A stretch of 43,127 nt of DNA from a virus (Duplodnaviria; Heunggongvirae; Uroviricota; Caudoviricetes). The notes beneath the pieces are model-generated. The model was not told the origin of the DNA and searched no databases. It saw only the letters and a list, made by a program, of their open reading frames with translations. The translations under genes and the position numbers were made by a program. The DNA is taken from IMG/VR virus record IMGVR_UViG_2529293240_000022, one strand, 5' to 3'. Within the stretch, counting starts at the first letter, position 1, and the number at the start of each line of letters is the position of its first letter. Positions 721-43,127 of the stretch are shown here, piece after piece.

Positions 721-1539
721 TTAAGCAGCCATCTGATGATATTTTTCCCTGAAGGCTGCCGGGGAGATATTCCCCAGACGAGAGTGACGACGCTGACGAT
801 TGTAGAAAATCTCAATGTATTCCCGTATTACTGAGATGGCTTCATCCCGGTTATTAAAACGATAGTGGCTCAGGCTCTCATTTTTCAGCGTTCCCCAGAA
901 GCTTTCCATCGGAGCGTTGTCGTAACAGTTACCTTTACGCGACATTGATGTTTTCAGACCAAACTGCTCCTGTATGACCCGGTAATCGTATGCGCAGTAC
1001 TGTGAACCTCGATCAGAGTGGTGGATTAGCCCGGCAGGTGGGCGCTGGCTCCTGAGCGCCATAAACAGGGCTTTACCTGTCAGCTCTTTTGTCATGCGCT
1101 CTCCCATGGCGTAGCCGACAATTTCGCACGTATAAACATCTTTGATGCCAGCGAGGTACAACCATCCCTCCTGTGTGGCAACATACGTCAGGTCCGCCAC
1201 CCAGACCTGATTTGGTGCTGTAGGAGCGAACGTCTGGTTCAGCAGATTTGGCGCAACTGGCAGATTGTGGTTCGAGTTCGTAGTCGCTCTGAACTTGCGT
1301 TTCTGCTTACAGCGTAGCCTTAGCTCCTTACGAAGACGTGCCAGTCGGTCACGACCAACGATGATGCCATTCTCTGCCAGCTCCGTCTGGAGCCGCCGGG
1401 TTCCATATGTTTCGCGAGTGCGGATATGTGCCACCTTAATCTCCAGTTTTAGCCGCTCATTACTTTGTTTTCTGTCTGAGGGTTCATGCTGTACCCAGTT
1501 GTAATAACCGCTCCTGGATACACCAAATACCTGACACAT
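721..1539 (-). CDS. IS3-family transposase OrfB (DDE integrase core); probably made as an OrfAB fusion by -1 frameshift at 1620-1626
   Basis: 272-aa ORF with conserved integrase-core motifs (HSDRGSQY, CYDNAPMESF). Confidence 0.8.
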   Translation of the reverse strand: MCQVFGVSRSGYYNWVQHEPSDRKQSNERLKLEIKVAHIRTRETYGTRRLQTELAENGIIVGRDRLARLRKELRLRCKQKRKFRATTNSNHNLPVAPNLLNQTFAPTAPNQVWVADLTYVATQEGWLYLAGIKDVYTCEIVGYAMGERMTKELTGKALFMALRSQRPPAGLIHHSDRGSQYCAYDYRVIQEQFGLKTSMSRKGNCYDNAPMESFWGTLKNESLSHYRFNNRDEAISVIREYIEIFYNRQRRHSRLGNISPAAFREKYHQMAA

Positions 1540-1574
1540 CGCGTCAATGGGAAATTGTTGTCGCCATTGTTCGA

Positions 1575-1877
1575 TTAACGCGTATTTTTCAGCGACTCCT
1601 GTGCAAAATACGCTGTTGCTTTTTTTAATATATCTCGCTCAAGGCGAGCTTCATTTAACGCCTTACGCAGTTGCAGAATTTCAGATTCCAGTTCAGCCAC
1701 CGTGCGGGAACCAGGAGTACCGAGCCCTTTTCTGGCGGCGGTAACCCATTGTCCTAAAGTGCCTTCAGGAAGAGATAATCGGGAAGCGCCTTCACTGATC
1801 GAAAGTTGATTTTCAAGAACCGTTCTGACAGCCTCGGCTTTGAACTCTTTAGAGTAACGTTGGGTTTTTCTGCTCAT
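1575..1877 (-). CDS. IS3-family transposase OrfA (HTH), 100 aa
   Basis: translation MSRKTQRYSKEFKAEAV...; ends ...ILKKATAYFAQ... over an A7 run (plus 1620-1626) typical of the -1 frameshift site. Confidence 0.8.
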   Translation of the reverse strand: MSRKTQRYSKEFKAEAVRTVLENQLSISEGASRLSLPEGTLGQWVTAARKGLGTPGSRTVAELESEILQLRKALNEARLERDILKKATAYFAQESLKNTR

Positions 1878-2820: not shown

Positions 2821-3183
2821 TTAATGACCTGCTGCGCGGAGTTTTCCGTCAGGTTCACCGGCAAGAGTCAGTAATTGTCCCTGGTCTTCCTGCAGAATAG
2901 TCAGGCGACCACCGCGATTGACATACATCGGCGTTTCGGTGGTGTCTTCTTCGGAAATTTTCCCGCGGTTAGTCGGACGAACATATGAGAGTTTGTGTTT
3001 TATTTTCACACGGTTCTCATCAAACGGTTCGATTTCCAGATTGAGCGAGACCTTCCCTTTGGTTTTCGTGTTCATCACACCTGAAGCGACTTCACTGAGA
3101 ACAGCGCCGATTTTGGTTTCAAATACGCCGCCGTCCAGCTCCCCGATAAATGCCTGCACATCAGTACTGCGTTCGCTAGCCAT
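2821..3183 (-). CDS. yfdP: YfdP-like small prophage protein, start taken at MASERS
   Basis: internal Met of ORF 2821..3414 preceded by GAGGAG ribosome-binding site; the upstream part of the ORF overlaps a long hairpin and is unlikely to be coding. Confidence 0.55.
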   Translation of the reverse strand: MASERSTDVQAFIGELDGGVFETKIGAVLSEVASGVMNTKTKGKVSLNLEIEPFDENRVKIKHKLSYVRPTNRGKISEEDTTETPMYVNRGGRLTILQEDQGQLLTLAGEPDGKLRAAGH

Positions 3184-3230
3184 TTTGCTGCTCCTCATCA
3201 TATCGACCCTGCAAGGTCGGTTGGTTTCTC

Positions 3231-3319
3231 CACAAAACAGAGAAGAACACCTGCGGTGGCAGCCGCCCGGGTGGATTGGGTTATGAGCCCGTCGTCCGGT
3301 GATGCTCTTCTCTGTTTTG
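3231..3319 (-). promoter_or_regulatory. Long hairpin: 15-bp perfect inverted repeat (ACAAAACAGAGAAGA / TCTTCTCTGTTTTGT) around a GC-rich 59-nt core, in the untranslated early-left leader
   Basis: read directly from sequence: arms at 3231-3245 and 3305-3319. Confidence 0.5.
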
Positions 3320-3791
3320 TAAAAAGAGCGGTACCAGCCGGAAGCAAGTGTACAAACTGGTACCGCCAAAGCAGTGGCTGTTGTGGTGGGCTTGTCACTT
3401 AAGCGTATGGTCAACCTGACAACCCGGTGTCCTCAACGGGGAAGGAATAACCCCGCCATACTTACCGCCGCGCCATTTCGCGGATTACCACAACGCTGAG
3501 AGCACTTAGCCAGTTACGGCACCATACTTTGTCGCGGTTCCATAAATGCCCTCATCGTTGCACCCTGGTCTCTTCCCAGGCGTCAAACCGAATCGCCACG
3601 CTGGTTAGGCGTCTTATCAGCATCATCATTGACTTGCACATTCCGGCTACCTGGTTTGTTTGCCCGAGCAAGGAGTGGATTGTCCCCTTTAACGTCCCCA
3701 GACCGCTAACGACGCATGTGCCATACGCCGTGTTACAACCAAATTTTGTTAGTACCTTGTTTGTTGGTCTGGAAAGAAAGATAAAATGAAG

Positions 3792-3830
3792 TTGCGCATT
3801 ATGCAAGTATTTTTGTTGCGAGATATGCAA
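3792..3830 (-). promoter_or_regulatory. OL-like operator pair overlapping a putative leftward early promoter (pL)
   Basis: two 15-bp sites TTGCGCATTATGCAA (3792-3806) and TTGCGAGATATGCAA (3816-3830); on the minus strand a -35 TTGCAT / -10 TATCTT pair overlaps them. Confidence 0.5.
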
Positions 3831-3840
3831 TTTGATGGGT

Positions 3841-3865
3841 AATGAAAAGCCACCTTCGGGTGGCT
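3841..3865 (-). terminator. Rho-independent terminator downstream of the cI-like gene
   Basis: stem AGCCACC, loop CGAA, stem GGTGGCT followed by TTTCATT on the minus strand. Confidence 0.6.
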
Positions 3866-3885
3866 AATTGATGAGGAGGTAAGGG

Positions 3886-4578
3886 TTAATTGTGTCGCTT
3901 AAGGGTTTGTGACTGGCTGATTAAGACCTTTCCAAAGACCATAAACCGGTGTTCATTTTCGCTGGTAATTCCCCATTCACGATAAATCTGGTTATCAGAA
4001 ATCACCAGTAGTTTGTCAGGTATCATTTGCAGTCGTTTGACATAAATTTTATCATCAAAACCAAATACATAGATACCATCTCCATCAAACTGATTGATAC
4101 TGACATCAACGAAGATGAGATCTCCTGGCTCAATGGTTGGACACATACTGTCCCCACGAACGTTGATAACTTTAATGTGATTTGCTGGCCGTCCGCCAAA
4201 CATCGATACAGCATTATCAGTTCTGTATTCAATGGCATGAATCACATCAATGACATCACCGCCCTGGATAAGGCCATTTCCCGCACTGGCACTGACATCC
4301 AGCATTTCAATACGGAATACATCCTTCACCTGCGCAACATCCTCACTAATACTGTTTTTACATACAGTATTACTTTTGAAGTCTGAGGTAAAGAGATCAG
4401 CAATATCAACACCTAAGCTCCTGGCAATATTACTCAGGGCTTGTTCAGTGAATTGTTTCTGCTTACCTGTTTCCAGGCGTGAGATATTCGCCGCATCCAC
4501 TCCTATTGCTTCAGCGAGATCGGCGATTTTCATGTTCTTCGCCTGGCGAAGTTGTCTGACTCGGTTTCCTATGTTCAT
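3886..4578 (-). CDS. cI: CI-like prophage repressor: N-terminal HTH plus C-terminal S24 (LexA-type) autopeptidase domain
   Basis: 230-aa translation with HTH near the N-terminus, GDSM serine motif and VKRL lysine; divergent from the cro-like gene. Confidence 0.85.
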   Translation of the reverse strand: MNIGNRVRQLRQAKNMKIADLAEAIGVDAANISRLETGKQKQFTEQALSNIARSLGVDIADLFTSDFKSNTVCKNSISEDVAQVKDVFRIEMLDVSASAGNGLIQGGDVIDVIHAIEYRTDNAVSMFGGRPANHIKVINVRGDSMCPTIEPGDLIFVDVSINQFDGDGIYVFGFDDKIYVKRLQMIPDKLLVISDNQIYREWGITSENEHRFMVFGKVLISQSQTLKRHN

Positions 4579-4598
4579 GCGTTTATTACATTTCTTTA

Positions 4599-4662
4599 TT
4601 GCGCGTTAAGCAAATCAACTTGCGCAAAATATTTGCGTGAAATAATATGCCCATCACGCAAT
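4599..4662. promoter_or_regulatory. OR-like operator/promoter region between divergent cI and cro
   Basis: one full operator TTGCGCGTTAAGCAA (4599-4613) plus further TTGCG half-sites; putative pR -35 TTGCGC (4620-4625), 17-bp spacer, -10 TAATAT (4643-4648). Confidence 0.5.
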
Positions 4663-4675
4663 ATGTGGAGGTTAT

Positions 4676-4936
4676 ATGCAATCACCATTACGGAATGTGC
4701 GTAAGGCGCACGGATTTACTTTGCAGCATGTTGCTGCTGGCGTTCAGGTCAATCCAGCGACGCTGAGTCGTATTGAAAGACTGGAACAAATTCCATCTAT
4801 CGATCTTGCAGAACGTCTGGCCAATTTTTTTAAGGGTGAAATCAGCGAAATGCAGATTCTTTATCCGGCACGTTTTCAATCTAGCCAAAACCAGAATGGG
4901 TTTAAACCACAGGAACAGGAGGTAAGCCGTGGGTAA
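4676..4936 (+). CDS. cro: Cro-like HTH regulator, 86 aa
   Basis: XRE-type HTH pattern; position immediately right of the operator region; GGAGG ribosome-binding site. Confidence 0.6.
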   Translation: MQSPLRNVRKAHGFTLQHVAAGVQVNPATLSRIERLEQIPSIDLAERLANFFKGEISEMQILYPARFQSSQNQNGFKPQEQEVSRG

Positions 4937-5480
4937 TCATCACTGGAAAGTGGAAAAACAGCCTGAGTGGTACGTGAAAGCTGTCAGAAAAACTATCGCG
5001 GCGTTGCCGGGGGGTTACGCTGAAGCTGCTGAGTGGCTGGATGTAACAGAGAACGCTTTATTCAACCGCCTTCGTGCAGATGGCGATCAGATTTTCCCGC
5101 TGGGATGGGCAATGATTTTACAGCGTGCTGCTGGCACTCACTACATTGCGGATGCTGTCGCACAGTCTGCTGGTGGGGTGTTCGTATCGCTTCCTGAAAT
5201 TGAGGAAGTAGAGAACGCCGATATAAACCAGCGCCTGCTGGAAGTCATCGAACAGATCGGGAATTACTCAAAGCAGATTCGTTCGGCAATCGAAGATGGG
5301 GTCGTGGAGCCACACGAGCAGACAGCAATTAATGATGAGTTGTATCTGTCAATTTCGAAGCTCCAGGAGCATGCAGCACTGGTCTACAAAATCTTCTGCG
5401 CTCCAGAAAAGAGTGACGCCCGCGAGTGTGCAGCTCCGGGCGTCGTGGCGTTTTGTGTCTGTGGAGAAACTAACGCATGA
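4929..5480 (+). CDS. CII-like / YdaT-like regulatory protein (assignment uncertain), GTG start
   Basis: position directly after cro with 8-nt overlap; AGGAGG site 7 nt upstream of GTG; family call from memory only. Confidence 0.4.
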   Translation: MGNHHWKVEKQPEWYVKAVRKTIAALPGGYAEAAEWLDVTENALFNRLRADGDQIFPLGWAMILQRAAGTHYIADAVAQSAGGVFVSLPEIEEVENADINQRLLEVIEQIGNYSKQIRSAIEDGVVEPHEQTAINDELYLSISKLQEHAALVYKIFCAPEKSDARECAAPGVVAFCVCGETNA

Positions 5481-6628
5481 ACAGTTTAACGGCAAATAAC
5501 CGTTTGTCGCAACAGCTGGTGGTCAGTGTCGCTGAACACCTGTTGTTACGGCATGAATGCAGATTACCAGATCACCTGGCTGTAAGTAACCACAGAGAAC
5601 TTTACCTGACTGTGGGGGGCGAGTTGTGCAGGAACTTAACCGCTGGTTTCGTGACGGAAGAGGGCTTTATGTCCATGTTATTCGTTGGGAGCCAGAAACA
5701 CAGCGCGTTATCTATCTTCGCAAAGACTACCAGCATGAGTGCTTTAGTCCTTTGTGGAAATTCAGGCGTGATTTTGTTGAGTGTGAAGGACCACCAGCAC
5801 ATTGATTCTGCCATTCCGGGACGTTACACTGTTCAGGCACCTTATAAAGCGGGTGCCGGGATTGGCGTCCTGAAATTGATTACTGAGCATAACCGCGCTC
5901 ATGCGGTTTTTTCGTGTCATGAGCATTGCTACGCCCAAATTATGGTGGGGCGTACAGGGCCGACTTCGGTCGGGCCGGGTTCGGTAGTCTCCGGTAACGC
6001 CAACCCTGTACGTCTCACCACCTCTGTGATTGGCGTCCCATGTGGTGAGTTTTCTAAAAAACTGACTACCGGGGCTGTCACTATGACTACTCTCCCAACC
6101 CTCACTCAACCTGAAATTGCCATCGTTGATGGTCAGGCTGTTACTTCATCCCTGGCTGTTGCCAACTTCTTCTCCAAACGTCATGACGATGTACTGAAAA
6201 AGATCCGCACGCTTGAATGCTCCGCATCATTCACTGCCCGCAATTTTTCGGTGAGTGATTACACCGATTGCACAGGCCGCAAACTACCTTGCTATCAAAT
6301 CACCCGCGATGGCTTTGCGTTCCTTGCTATGGGCTTCACTGGTAAACGTGCTGCCCGGTTCAAAGAGGCATACATAAATGCCTTTAACCAGATGGAAAAA
6401 CTGCTTTCAAAGCCATCCACGCTGAGCGATGCCGCAGATAACGCCAGCGTGCTTTACTCCCACCTGTCGGTAATCCACAAGGTCTGGCTGCAGCAGCTTT
6501 ATCCCATGTTGGCAAAAGCCGAATCTCCGCTGGCTGTTAGCTTGTATGACTATATTAATGATGCTTCGGCGCTGGCCTGCCTCATAAATTTGTCGCTGAA
6601 TCCTTCAGAGGTAAGGGGGCGTAAATGA
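5477..6628 (+). CDS. Rha-family phage regulatory protein, copy 1, with unique 105-aa N-terminal extension
   Basis: Rha-type core (KRHDDVL...LPCYQITRDGFAFLAMGFTGKRA...FKEAYINAFNQME); ATGA overlap with upstream gene. Confidence 0.6.
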   Translation: MNSLTANNRLSQQLVVSVAEHLLLRHECRLPDHLAVSNHRELYLTVGGELCRNLTAGFVTEEGFMSMLFVGSQKHSALSIFAKTTSMSALVLCGNSGVILLSVKDHQHIDSAIPGRYTVQAPYKAGAGIGVLKLITEHNRAHAVFSCHEHCYAQIMVGRTGPTSVGPGSVVSGNANPVRLTTSVIGVPCGEFSKKLTTGAVTMTTLPTLTQPEIAIVDGQAVTSSLAVANFFSKRHDDVLKKIRTLECSASFTARNFSVSDYTDCTGRKLPCYQITRDGFAFLAMGFTGKRAARFKEAYINAFNQMEKLLSKPSTLSDAADNASVLYSHLSVIHKVWLQQLYPMLAKAESPLAVSLYDYINDASALACLINLSLNPSEVRGRK

Positions 6629-7527
6629 TCCGGAATATTTTCAAACTGTTTACCAATCGCCACCAGCACATTGATTCTGCCATTCCGGGACGTTACACTG
6701 TTCAGGCACCTTATAAAGCGGGTGCCGGGCGTGGAAACCCGAAATTCAATATAGAGCACAACCGCGCTCATGCGGTTTTTTCGTGTCATGAGCATCGTTA
6801 CGCCCAAATTATGGTGGGGCGTGCAGGGCCAACTTCGGTTGGGCCGGGTTCTATGTTGACCGGTATTTCCACCCCTGTACGTCTCACCACCTATATGGTC
6901 GTGGAAAGCCTTGGTGGTGAGTTCATTGAATTCAACATAGGGGCTGTCACCATGACTACTCTCCCAACCCAATCTCACCCTGAAATCACGATTATCAATG
7001 GTCGCGTTGTCACCACATCTCTTGCAGTAGCTAATTACTTTACTAAACGGCATGAGCGGGTTTTAGATAGAATTAGAAACCTCGAATGTTCCGCTGAATT
7101 TACTGAACACAATTTTGTGTTAAGTGAATACACCGACGCATCAGGCCGCAAACTCCCTTGTTACCAAATCACCCGCGACGGTTTTGCGTTTCTTGCCATG
7201 GGCTTCACGGGTAAACGTGCTGCCCAGTTCAAAGAGGCATACATCAATGCCTTTAACCAGATGGAGAAACAGCTTTCAAATCCCTCTGTACTGAGCGACG
7301 TTGCACATAACGCCAGCGTTCTCTATTCCTACATTTCATCAATTCATCAGGTCTGGCTGCAGCAGCTTTATCCTATGTTGGCAAAAGCCGAATCTCCGCT
7401 GGCTGTTAGCTTGTATGACTATATTAATGATGCTTCGGCACTGGCCTGCCTCATAAATTTGTCGCTGAACCCTTCAGAGGTAAGGGGGCGTAAATGATCC
7501 GGAATATTTTCAAACGGTTTACCAATC
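5792..7527 (+). repeat. Tandem direct duplication, two units of about 866 bp (5792-6657 and 6662-7527), mosaic identity
   Basis: first ~70 nt and last ~140 nt of the units are near-identical while the interior is substantially diverged, with an in-frame 3-nt indel; the 36-nt junction ATGATCCGGAATATTTTCAAAC... occurs at 6625 and 7494. Confidence 0.8.
6625..7497 (+). CDS. Rha-family phage regulatory protein, copy 2 (alternative internal start at 6952)
   Basis: paralogue of copy 1 with identical 5' and 3' ends and a diverged core; ATGA overlap. Confidence 0.65.
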   Translation: MIRNIFKLFTNRHQHIDSAIPGRYTVQAPYKAGAGRGNPKFNIEHNRAHAVFSCHEHRYAQIMVGRAGPTSVGPGSMLTGISTPVRLTTYMVVESLGGEFIEFNIGAVTMTTLPTQSHPEITIINGRVVTTSLAVANYFTKRHERVLDRIRNLECSAEFTEHNFVLSEYTDASGRKLPCYQITRDGFAFLAMGFTGKRAAQFKEAYINAFNQMEKQLSNPSVLSDVAHNASVLYSYISSIHQVWLQQLYPMLAKAESPLAVSLYDYINDASALACLINLSLNPSEVRGRK

Positions 7528-14014: not shown

Positions 14015-14090
14015 GGCCCTTTAGCTCAGTGGTGAGAGCGAGCGACTCATAATCGCCAGGTCGCTGGTTCAAATCCAGCAAGGGCCACCA
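14015..14090 (+). tRNA. ileZ: tRNA with CAU anticodon, tRNA-Ile2 (lysidine)-like, ileZ-like
   Basis: cloverleaf folded by hand: 7-bp acceptor stem GGCCCTT/AAGGGCC, anticodon loop CTCATAA, T-loop TTCAAAT, 3' CCA; closely resembles E. coli ileX. Confidence 0.8.
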
Positions 14091-14099
14091 TATCACATA

Positions 14100-14176
14100 C
14101 CGCCATTAGCTCATCGGGATAGAGCGCCAGCCTTCGAAGCTGGTTGCGCGGGGTTCGAGTCCTCGATGGCGGTCCA
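14100..14176 (+). tRNA. tRNA-Arg (anticodon UCG), argN-like
   Basis: cloverleaf folded by hand: acceptor CCGCCAT/ATGGCGG, anticodon loop CTTCGAA, T-loop TTCGAGT, 3' CCA. Confidence 0.7.
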
Positions 14177-14189
14177 TTATCTGTACCCT

Positions 14190-14266
14190 GCGTTGTTAGC
14201 TCAGCCGGACAGAGCAATTGCCTTCTAAGCAATCGGTCACTGGTTCGAATCCAGTACAACGCGCCA
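14190..14266 (+). tRNA. tRNA-Arg (anticodon UCU), argO-like
   Basis: cloverleaf folded by hand: acceptor GCGTTGT/ACAACGC, anticodon loop CTTCTAA, T-loop TTCGAAT, 3' CCA. Confidence 0.75.
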
Positions 14267-14305: not shown

Positions 14306-14501
14306 AAATGTCTCACAATTCAGACGGTTGACAGTTGTCTGTTTTGCGGGGAGTTTGTTAAAAGAAACTGGCATGGTGAATCCCCCTGTGCGGAGGGGCA
14401 ATCAGCGAGTAGGTATATGGGATAATCGCGGATTCAGGTGCTGGTACTGAATTCACCGGGAGGCACCCGGCACCATGCAATGGCACATAGCGCCACTCTC
14501 C

Positions 14502-14561
14502 AGCCCCTCTCCGGAGGGGCTTTCTTATGGACAAAAAAAGCCCGCGCTGGGAGACGCGGGC
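14502..14561. terminator. Back-to-back hairpins in the tRNA to nanS-p spacer
   Basis: plus-strand AGCCCCTC-TCCG-GAGGGGCT (14502-14521) then TTCTT; minus-strand terminator GCCCGCG...CGCGGGC (14540-14561) preceded by A7. Confidence 0.4.
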
Positions 14562-42543: not shown

Positions 42544-43127
42544 TGGCATTCAGAATGAGTGAACAACCACGGACCATAAAAATTTATAATCTGCTGGCCG
42601 GAACTAATGAATTTATTGGTGAAGGTGACGCATATATTCCGCCTCATACAGGTCTGCCTGCAAACAGTACCGATATTGCACCGTTAGATATTCCGGCAGG
42701 CTTCGTGGCTGTTTTCAACAGTGATGAGTCATCGTGGCATCTCTTTGAAGACCATCGGGGTAAAACGGTTTATGACGTGGCTTCCGGCGACGCGTTATTT
42801 ATTTCTGAACTCGGTCCGTTACCGGAAAATGTTACCTGGTTATCGCCGGAAGGGGAGTTTCAGAAGTGGAACGGCACAGCCTGGGTGAAGGATACGGAAG
42901 CAGAAAAACTGTTCCGGATCCGGGAGGCGGAAGAAACAAAAAACAACCTGATGCAGGTAGCCAGTGAGCATATTGCGCCGCTTCAGGATGCTGCAGATCT
43001 GGAAATTGCAACGGAGGAAGAAACCTCATTGCTGGAAGCCTGGAAAAAGTATCGGGTGTTGCTGAACCGTGTTGATACATCAACTGCACCTGATATTGAG
43101 TGGCCTACGAACCCTGTCAGGGAGTAA
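42543..43127 (+). CDS. tfa: Tail fibre assembly protein (Tfa)
   Basis: 194-aa translation typical of lambdoid Tfa; TAATG overlap with stf. Confidence 0.8.

Follow-up and report, generated by a model that had tools for sequence, protein, structure and literature searches.

The DNA analysed here is a stretch of 43,127 nucleotides from a tailed virus (Caudoviricetes; IMG/VR record IMGVR_UViG_2529293240_000022), called the window in its full length, and the subject is its immunity region, which has the classical lambdoid layout and spans positions 3750-4950. The repressor gene cI and the gene cro form a divergent pair, coding according to Pfam for a repressor with an S24 domain and for a small helix-turn-helix (HTH) Cro, and a gene for a CII of the CP76/YmfL type lies beyond cro. 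The spacer between cI and cro contains two 15-bp pseudo-palindromes, here termed OR-a and OR-c, and an octamer placed between them. A second cluster of two, OL1 and OL2 (3792-3830), is located on the far side of cI, just past an intrinsic terminator whose hairpin has an equivalent in all the relatives and is labelled as a terminator in the annotation of Shigella phage SfII. Hence the setting described by a first-pass annotation made from the letters alone, an S24-type CI with palindromes at both sides of its gene, is the one found. The evidence presented below indicates that the palindromes are very probably the operators of a λ-type immunity switch, recognised by the HTH and S24 domain repressor CI and most likely by Cro too.

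The first-pass annotation had reported three full copies of a motif TTGCG-N5-TGCAA, two to the left of cI and one between cI and cro. The two left copies are exact, while the copy in the spacer carries a single mismatch, A for T at motif position 11. The exact motif, TTGCGNNNNNTGCAA, is present three times in the window, at 3792-3806 (+), 3816-3830 (+) and 6268-6282 (−); the mean in shuffled sequences is 0.23, and none of 100 shuffles reaches three. The additional TTGCG half-sites that had been claimed were located at 4620(+), 4623(−), 4633(+) and 4657(−), TTGCG occurring five times in 63 bp, while the window in its full length has 75 on its two strands (Poisson P = 1.2e-7). The last of them, however, forms the right half of a fourth complete site, OR-c, which becomes apparent when the core is relaxed to WTGC-N7-GCAA. 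This core is found at seven places in the 43-kb window, and four of them (3792, 3816, 4599 and 4647) fall within the 870 bp from 3792 to 4661 (binomial P = 5.5e-6), so that the motif does not occur at a similar density elsewhere in the prophage. The three outside matches, at 6268, 14218 and 25794, were discarded as operators: their number is what chance predicts, and the exact copy at 6268-6282 lies inside a Rha/Ash open reading frame (ORF) and has a GC-rich centre, consistent with a chance occurrence.

A symmetric position weight matrix (PWM) was built from 38 unique 15-mers, giving the consensus TTGCG-TAATA-CGCAA. The repeated palindrome noticed in the first reading is largely real, but its consensus is better written in the symmetric form (T/A)TGC-r-N5-y-GCAA. 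The matrix ranks the four immunity sites at the top of the window (Table 1), though with some circularity, since these same sites served to train it. In the scan of the rest of the prophage no extra operator scored above shuffle level, the next match reaching 13.2, where the maximum of the shuffles is 12.6 on average.

Table 1. Genes, probable operators and predicted promoter elements of the immunity region (window coordinates; PWM, weight-matrix score)
Feature	Coordinates	Strand	Sequence	Remarks
cI repressor, 230 aa	3886-4578	minus		N-terminal HTH_3, C-terminal Peptidase_S24
cro, 86 aa, HTH_3	4676-4936	plus		GGAGG Shine-Dalgarno upstream; Pfam HTH_3 5.8e-10; swapped with cI in cdtI
CII, CP76/YmfL type	4929-5480			follows cro
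Intrinsic terminator	3848-3865	minus		7-pair stem, then T-run; closes cI transcript ahead of OL
OL1, probable operator	3792-3806		TTGCGCATTATGCAA	exact motif; PWM 21.8, top score of the window
OL2, probable operator	3816-3830		TTGCGAGATATGCAA	exact motif; PWM 19.7; centre 24 bp from OL1 centre
OR-a, probable operator	4599-4613		TTGCGCGTTAAGCAA	one-mismatch copy; PWM 19.1; spacer offset 23 in 8/8 lineages
OR-c, probable operator	4647-4661		ATGCCCATCACGCAA	WTGC-N7-GCAA; PWM 13.8, fourth in the window; spacer offset 71 in 8/8 lineages
Palindromic octamer	4620-4627		TTGCGCAA	two opposed half-sites; 8/8 columns invariant in 70 relatives
Extra half-site	4633-4637	plus	TTGCG	left arm of 8-bp inverted repeat with 4654-4661
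Putative pL −35	3806-3801	minus	TTGCAT	distal 6 bp of OL1
Putative pL −10	3783-3778	minus	TATCTT	17 bp from TTGCAT; low column variability
Putative pRM −35	4613-4608	minus	TTGCTT	distal 6 bp of OR-a
Putative pRM −10	4590-4585	minus	TGTAAT	17 bp from TTGCTT; 6 nt before cI ATG
Putative pR −35	4620-4625	plus	TTGCGC	first six bases of the octamer
Putative pR −10	4643-4648	plus	TAATAT	17 bp after TTGCGC
Swappable immunity cassette	3751-4900			pL/OL, terminator, cI, OR, cro; boundaries of the cdtI match

Conservation of the sites was studied in 89 related immunity regions, comprising 80 viral contigs, phage records, four genome loci and the window itself, of which 70 were unique and could be aligned. 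The scan of viral contigs with CI gave only copies 99-100% identical, which inform on microdiversity and not on depth; one scan of genome contigs yielded 5 loci. In the 70 unique sequences, 27 of the 32 columns of the TTGC/GCAA cores are invariant, compared with 60 of 211 among the remaining intergenic columns (Fisher P = 1.8e-9); not one of the 20 columns in the centres is invariant, and site positions 5 and 11 behave in an intermediate manner. Between 7 and 14 versions of each site were found, and nearly all their differences lie in the centre. OL1, with 14 variants, keeps TTGC and GCAA in all of them while its centre reads, among others, CATTA, CATCA, TATTA, CGTTG or TAACG; likewise, the cores of OR-a are invariant and its centre varies, and in OR-c the ATGC and CGCAA ends are invariant around six variable bases.

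The positions of the sites are fixed over a wider range of divergence. Eight lineages were compared: the window, SfII, ST64B, three Citrobacter genomes, Klebsiella phage ST147-VIM1phi7.2 and Escherichia coli phage Flotzy. In all eight, the cI-cro spacer contains full sites at offsets 23 and 71 (position 0 being the first base of the cI start codon in plus-strand reading), and two more sites lie just past the cI terminator, with starts 22-24 bp apart. The identity of the CI DNA-binding domain drops to 68-73% in ST147-VIM1phi7.2 and Flotzy; the core of its helix-turn-helix, GVDAANISRLETGKQKQ, is identical in seven of the eight lineages, and four residues differ in Flotzy.

Segment 3400-5500 of the window is about 97% identical to mEp460, the PhiR40_1 group, phiSTEC1575-Stx2k, Stx2a_1447, Stx2a_WGPS2 and 1720a-02 (Phi-stx2dact); its identity is 90% with SfII and about 73% with the Salmonella phages ST64B and F1055. 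Among the carriers of this immunity type are phages with Stx2a, Stx2k and Stx2d-activatable toxin genes, the serotype-converting Shigella phage SfII and, in a diverged form, ST64B and Klebsiella prophages. With 3770-4690 as query, immunity regions at least 90% identical were found in 1040 of 5426 complete E. coli genomes, roughly one in five. Some of these genomes contain two or three copies (three places per genome at most), which implies co-resident homoimmune prophages.

A natural exchange in phage cdtI separates the motif from the DNA around it. This phage matches the window with 98.6% identity at 3403-3750 and 97.5% at 4901-5500, and between the two matching flanks it holds a cI/cro pair of the e14 type, whose repressor is 21% identical to the CI of the window. 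No WTGC-N7-GCAA site is present in the e14-type cassette of cdtI; at the equivalent places it has palindromes of the form TGTAY-N9-RTACA. Since the flanks are the same, the motif is inherited together with the cI/cro pair, independently of the surrounding DNA: operators and repressor have been exchanged as one unit between otherwise homologous phages. The limits of the cassette are set at about 3751 and 4900 because the homology with cdtI stops there, which leaves the CII gene partly outside.

The joint replacement of cI and cro in cdtI means that the comparative data cannot separate the two proteins, and it is the first argument for a different explanation, namely that the palindromes are real protein-binding sites used chiefly by Cro, or by another factor such as CII (CP76/YmfL type) or a regulator of the host, while CI would recognise another sequence of the region. 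The invariant octamer and the direct repeat TTGCG-N8-TTGCG (4620, 4633) do not fit a 15-bp palindrome, and direct repeats of TTGC are what the CII protein of λ recognises. However, two of the sites lie beyond cI at pL, which a maintenance repressor has to control, the motif tracks the recognition helix of CI while Cro diverges more (in ST64B, 72% against 83-84% identity), and OL and OR have no other repeated motif in common. Phage cdtI, which retains the CII gene yet does not have the motif, also speaks against a role for CII. We regard a main ligand other than CI as improbable. Considering (i) the conservation of the cores, (ii) the fixed positions in eight lineages and (iii) the loss of the motif in the cdtI swap, the proposal of the first-pass annotation that these are probable CI operators is upheld by the sequence comparison.

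The putative hexamers of promoters pL, pR and pRM were placed by positional conservation, with predicted starts at about 3771, about 4655 and 4578, respectively. A T-A-x-x-x-T hexamer (TATCTT, TATCAT or TAATTT) stands exactly 8 nt from the edge of OL1 in the eight lineages. ATTACA, which would be the −10 element of pRM, is invariant in the 70 unique relatives and in all lineages, while its neighbouring bases vary. At pR, the TTGCGC hexamer, the 17-bp spacing and TAAYAT are kept in the eight lineages, and variability of the −10 hexamer is limited to its positions 3 and 4 (1 and 9 of 70 sequences, respectively). No Shine-Dalgarno sequence lies upstream of the cI ATG, and together with the closeness of the pRM −10 element to this codon this predicts a leaderless cI mRNA. 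The cI mRNA from λ pRM is leaderless.

The sites of the spacer (OR-a, OR-c and the octamer) overlap the conserved −35 and −10 hexamers of the two divergent putative promoters. OL1 on pL and OR-a on pRM have an identical geometry, in which the operator covers the −35 element and the first nine bases of the spacer, and OR-c spans the end of the putative pR −10 element and the predicted start. The overlap with pL and pR that had been claimed from the letters therefore stands for OL1 and for the site 4647-4661, but the copy proximal to cI would cover the −35 element of pRM instead.

The outer ends of OL1 and OR-a and the first six bases of the octamer thus coincide with the putative −35 hexamers, of which TTG is the conserved part. 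This coincidence could suggest that the repeats are a by-product of −35-like TTGC elements and of the AT-rich composition of intergenic DNA, with no dedicated repressor binding. Such an origin would not account for the partner half, GCAA, which is conserved at a distance of exactly 7 bp in every one of the four sites, even in OL2 and OR-c, which do not coincide with a −35 element; nor for the e14-type cassette, which needs equivalent promoters and yet is devoid of the motif; nor for the enrichment statistics. It is accordingly the explanation to which we give least credit, being very nearly discounted.

The middle of OR is less clear. Two 15-mers, 4613-4627 and 4620-4634, were scored across the lineages as candidates for a middle site. 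Neither is convincing in the window, where both agree with the core at fewer than 6 of its 8 bases; their counterparts in the Citrobacter amalonaticus, Klebsiella and Flotzy lineages (L089, L091 and L092), at offsets 37 and 44, agree at 6-7 of the 8. Another feature of this segment is a perfect 8-bp inverted repeat, TTGCGTGA / TCACGCAA (4633-4640 / 4654-4661), which brackets the pR −10 element. It raises the question of whether the operator unit, at least at pR, is something other than the 15-bp palindrome, for instance the 29-bp inverted repeat TTGCGTGA-N13-TCACGCAA (4633-4661) or a series of single TTGCG half-sites to which a higher-order oligomer binds. In Citrobacter braakii (L088) both arms of the repeat are changed, to TTGCGTCA / TGACGCAA, and OR-c is degenerate at position 5 of its left half, two observations that favour such a unit. 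The long repeat is nevertheless broken in SfII, L087, ST64B, L089, L091 and L092, whereas all of these retain ATGC-N7-GCAA at an unchanged offset, and no repeat of this kind exists at OL. The TTGCG at 4633 is itself kept only in the group formed by E. coli, Shigella and Citrobacter L087/L088. The 8-bp repeat was hence rejected as an alternative operator because it is not conserved across lineages, and a unit other than the 15-bp palindrome appears highly improbable.

Several points weigh against the 15-bp palindromes as operators of a λ-type switch. Only two clear OR sites are present, 48 bp apart and with no convincing middle site in the window, so that a λ-like tripartite OR is not demonstrated. 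The OR site nearest to the consensus lies over pRM and not over pR, which is the reverse of the order of CI affinities at λ OR, if the match to the consensus predicts affinity. The promoter hexamers are weak matches to the consensus, their −35 elements sharing only TTG, and a consensus promoter scan of 3300-5000 called none of pL, pR and pRM. The only intergenic call of the scanner, at 4669-4642 on the minus strand, is not conserved in the relatives and for this reason was treated as a chance match. Moreover, the weight matrix and the conservation test use sites picked from the same set of related sequences and are not fully independent. Finally, a description of these operators was not found in the open-access literature, although an older one may exist. 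Searches on mEp460, ST64B, e14/CohE, SfII/SfV and the literal operator 15-mers gave no description of the operators, those on e14/CohE being swamped by unrelated papers. A comparative paper on SfIV mentions the cI/cro pair of SfII only in passing (PMC3851460). A remark that the specificity of a repressor is unknown (PMC12315714) concerns phage LLS, whose closest relative is mEp460_4F5; that its repressor is of the same type is not shown, and the remark was not relied on.

CI has the two domains expected for such a regulator (Pfam Peptidase_S24, 6.5e-19; HTH_3, 1e-10). Its DNA-binding domain is of the 434/Xre HTH_3 type, the best match in the Protein Data Bank (PDB) being a 434-derived domain (E = 2e-4), and no close solved homologue was found. 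Ser144, in the GDSM sequence, and Lys181 are invariant in an alignment with four relatives including YmfK of e14, and the Ala99-Gly100 pair read from the translation between the two domains is the predicted linker cleavage site. The protein is 43% identical to HK022 CI, chiefly in the C-terminal domain. In phage Phi-stx2dact (1720a-02), whose immunity region is 96.7% identical to that of the window, mitomycin C causes a 234-fold induction that depends on RecA (10.1101/348706).

We propose the following model, in which a CI dimer would recognise two TTGC half-sites 7 bp apart and Cro would most likely bind the same sites. CI at OL1 and OL2 would block pL, OL1 by covering the −35 element and the spacer of the promoter and OL2, upstream of it, by being suitably placed to act as a cooperative partner. 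HK022 CI is a highly cooperative binder, and by analogy the kinship of the C-terminal domains makes cooperative pairing plausible at the 24-bp spacing of OL. At the right operator, the octamer would supply the −35 element of pR plus a weak middle site, and CI bound at OR-c, together with the central half-sites, may block transcription of cro, cII, rha and the replication genes from pR. As OR-c covers the −10 element and the start, its occupancy would shut off lytic transcription. OR-a covers the −35 element and spacer of a promoter predicted to start at the cI AUG, and its occupancy should therefore limit cI synthesis. After DNA damage, RecA would stimulate self-cleavage of CI at Ala99-Gly100, and repression would be lifted.

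The layout of OR also allows a different switch logic, which we put forward tentatively and consider rather unlikely. Two full OR operators are fixed 48 bp apart and bridged by the invariant TTGCGCAA, and the site nearest to the consensus sits on the promoter of the repressor itself with the same geometry as OL1 on pL. Lysogeny might then be maintained by strong negative autoregulation, perhaps with a short (0.8 kb) OL-OR loop, and not by activation of the OR2 type, while a duplicated C4/isrK Ash/Rha module located downstream would act as a second immunity layer.

The module in question is a diverged tandem duplication (5477-7497; units 5791-6511 and 6660-7380, period 869 bp, 75-88% identity). 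Each unit contains an isrK RNA (5837-5913 and 6706-6782) and a C4 antisense RNA (5938-6025 and 6807-6894) in an Ash+Rha antirepressor-like ORF, and mEp460 has one copy only. Directly downstream of CI, Cro and CII, the duplication looks like a doubled RNA immunity layer of the P1/P4 type. No Rfam match was found within the immunity region itself, either in the search of the whole window or with a relaxed threshold on 3100-5000.

At the other side of the region, about 350-570 nt separate the predicted pL start from the first plausible leftward gene, without a convincing ORF (3200-3770, minus strand). This stretch downstream of pL gave no Rfam match and no unusual folding energy (358 nt, z = −1.0). 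Just downstream of pL, and irrespective of their immunity type, e14, ST64B, F1055, SfII and Flotzy share an element of about 60 nt (gaatcatcc…ggcggctacttcgtgggcgtcctgcctgtt; L084 3120-3170, L002 1820-1880, L003 2360-2420, L001 1410-1470; also L092), conserved among them but absent from the window; minimum-free-energy folding of the ST64B copy did not support a stable structure (z = +1.6). Further to the left, the early region carries an insertion sequence of the IS3 family (721-1877, minus strand; OrfA, HTH_Tnp_1, 1575-1877; OrfB, rve, 721-1539) that adjoins a DUF2303 gene (1934-2755). Elsewhere in the window there are three tRNA genes (14015-14263) followed by a match to the small RNA STnc100 (14342-14532), and a match to the IS009 RNA near the right end (42886-43084).

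Knowing the operator sequence would help to predict homo- and heteroimmunity among co-resident prophages, to design reporters and non-inducible mutants for studies on toxin phages, and to annotate pL, pR and pRM in thousands of genomes. The switch is of a known kind; it represents one more specificity in a well-understood class and leaves the thinking on such switches unchanged. Its architecture and logic match those of the λ, 434, P22 and HK022 switches, and we know of no characterised repressor with the half-site sequence found here.

As in λ, cI and cro are divergent, palindromes lie in the spacer and beyond cI at pL, overlapping pR, pRM and pL, the repressor is of the S24 self-cleaving type, and cI has no Shine-Dalgarno sequence and a −10-like hexamer placed for a leaderless mRNA. 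In contrast, the sites are of 15 bp (halves of 4-5 bp, centre of 5-7 bp) instead of 17 bp and unrelated in sequence, two OL and two clear OR sites are recognisable instead of three at even spacing, the distance from OL to OR is only about 0.8 kb, and the DNA-binding domain is of the 434/Xre type and not of the λ CI fold. With 434 and P22 c2 the repressor shares this five-helix domain, and the 434 operators follow a common pattern with the sites of the window, namely conserved outer half-sites around a variable, AT-rich centre. The half-sites nevertheless differ, ACAA...TTGT in 434 and TTGC...GCAA here, as do the site length (14 bp in 434 and 18 bp in P22) and the number and spacing of the sites. 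The e14/cdtI cassette (YmfK/CohE, YmfT/CroE) has the same genome backbone, with identical flanks in cdtI, and the same order of OL, terminator, cI, OR, cro and ymfL-type cII; with its distant repressor and its own palindromes it is the heteroimmune counterpart of the region described here. The closest experimentally studied homologue that was identified is HK022 CI, by virtue of its C-terminal domain of oligomerisation and cleavage. The HK022 cI-cro spacer contains two identical 15-bp palindromes, TGAACCATAAGTTCA, 57 bp apart (L094 5123-5137 and 5180-5194), which are probably the HK022 operators. Despite an unrelated N-terminal DNA-binding domain and an unrelated palindrome sequence, they have the same 5-N5-5 geometry and the same layout of two outer sites as the palindromes of the window.

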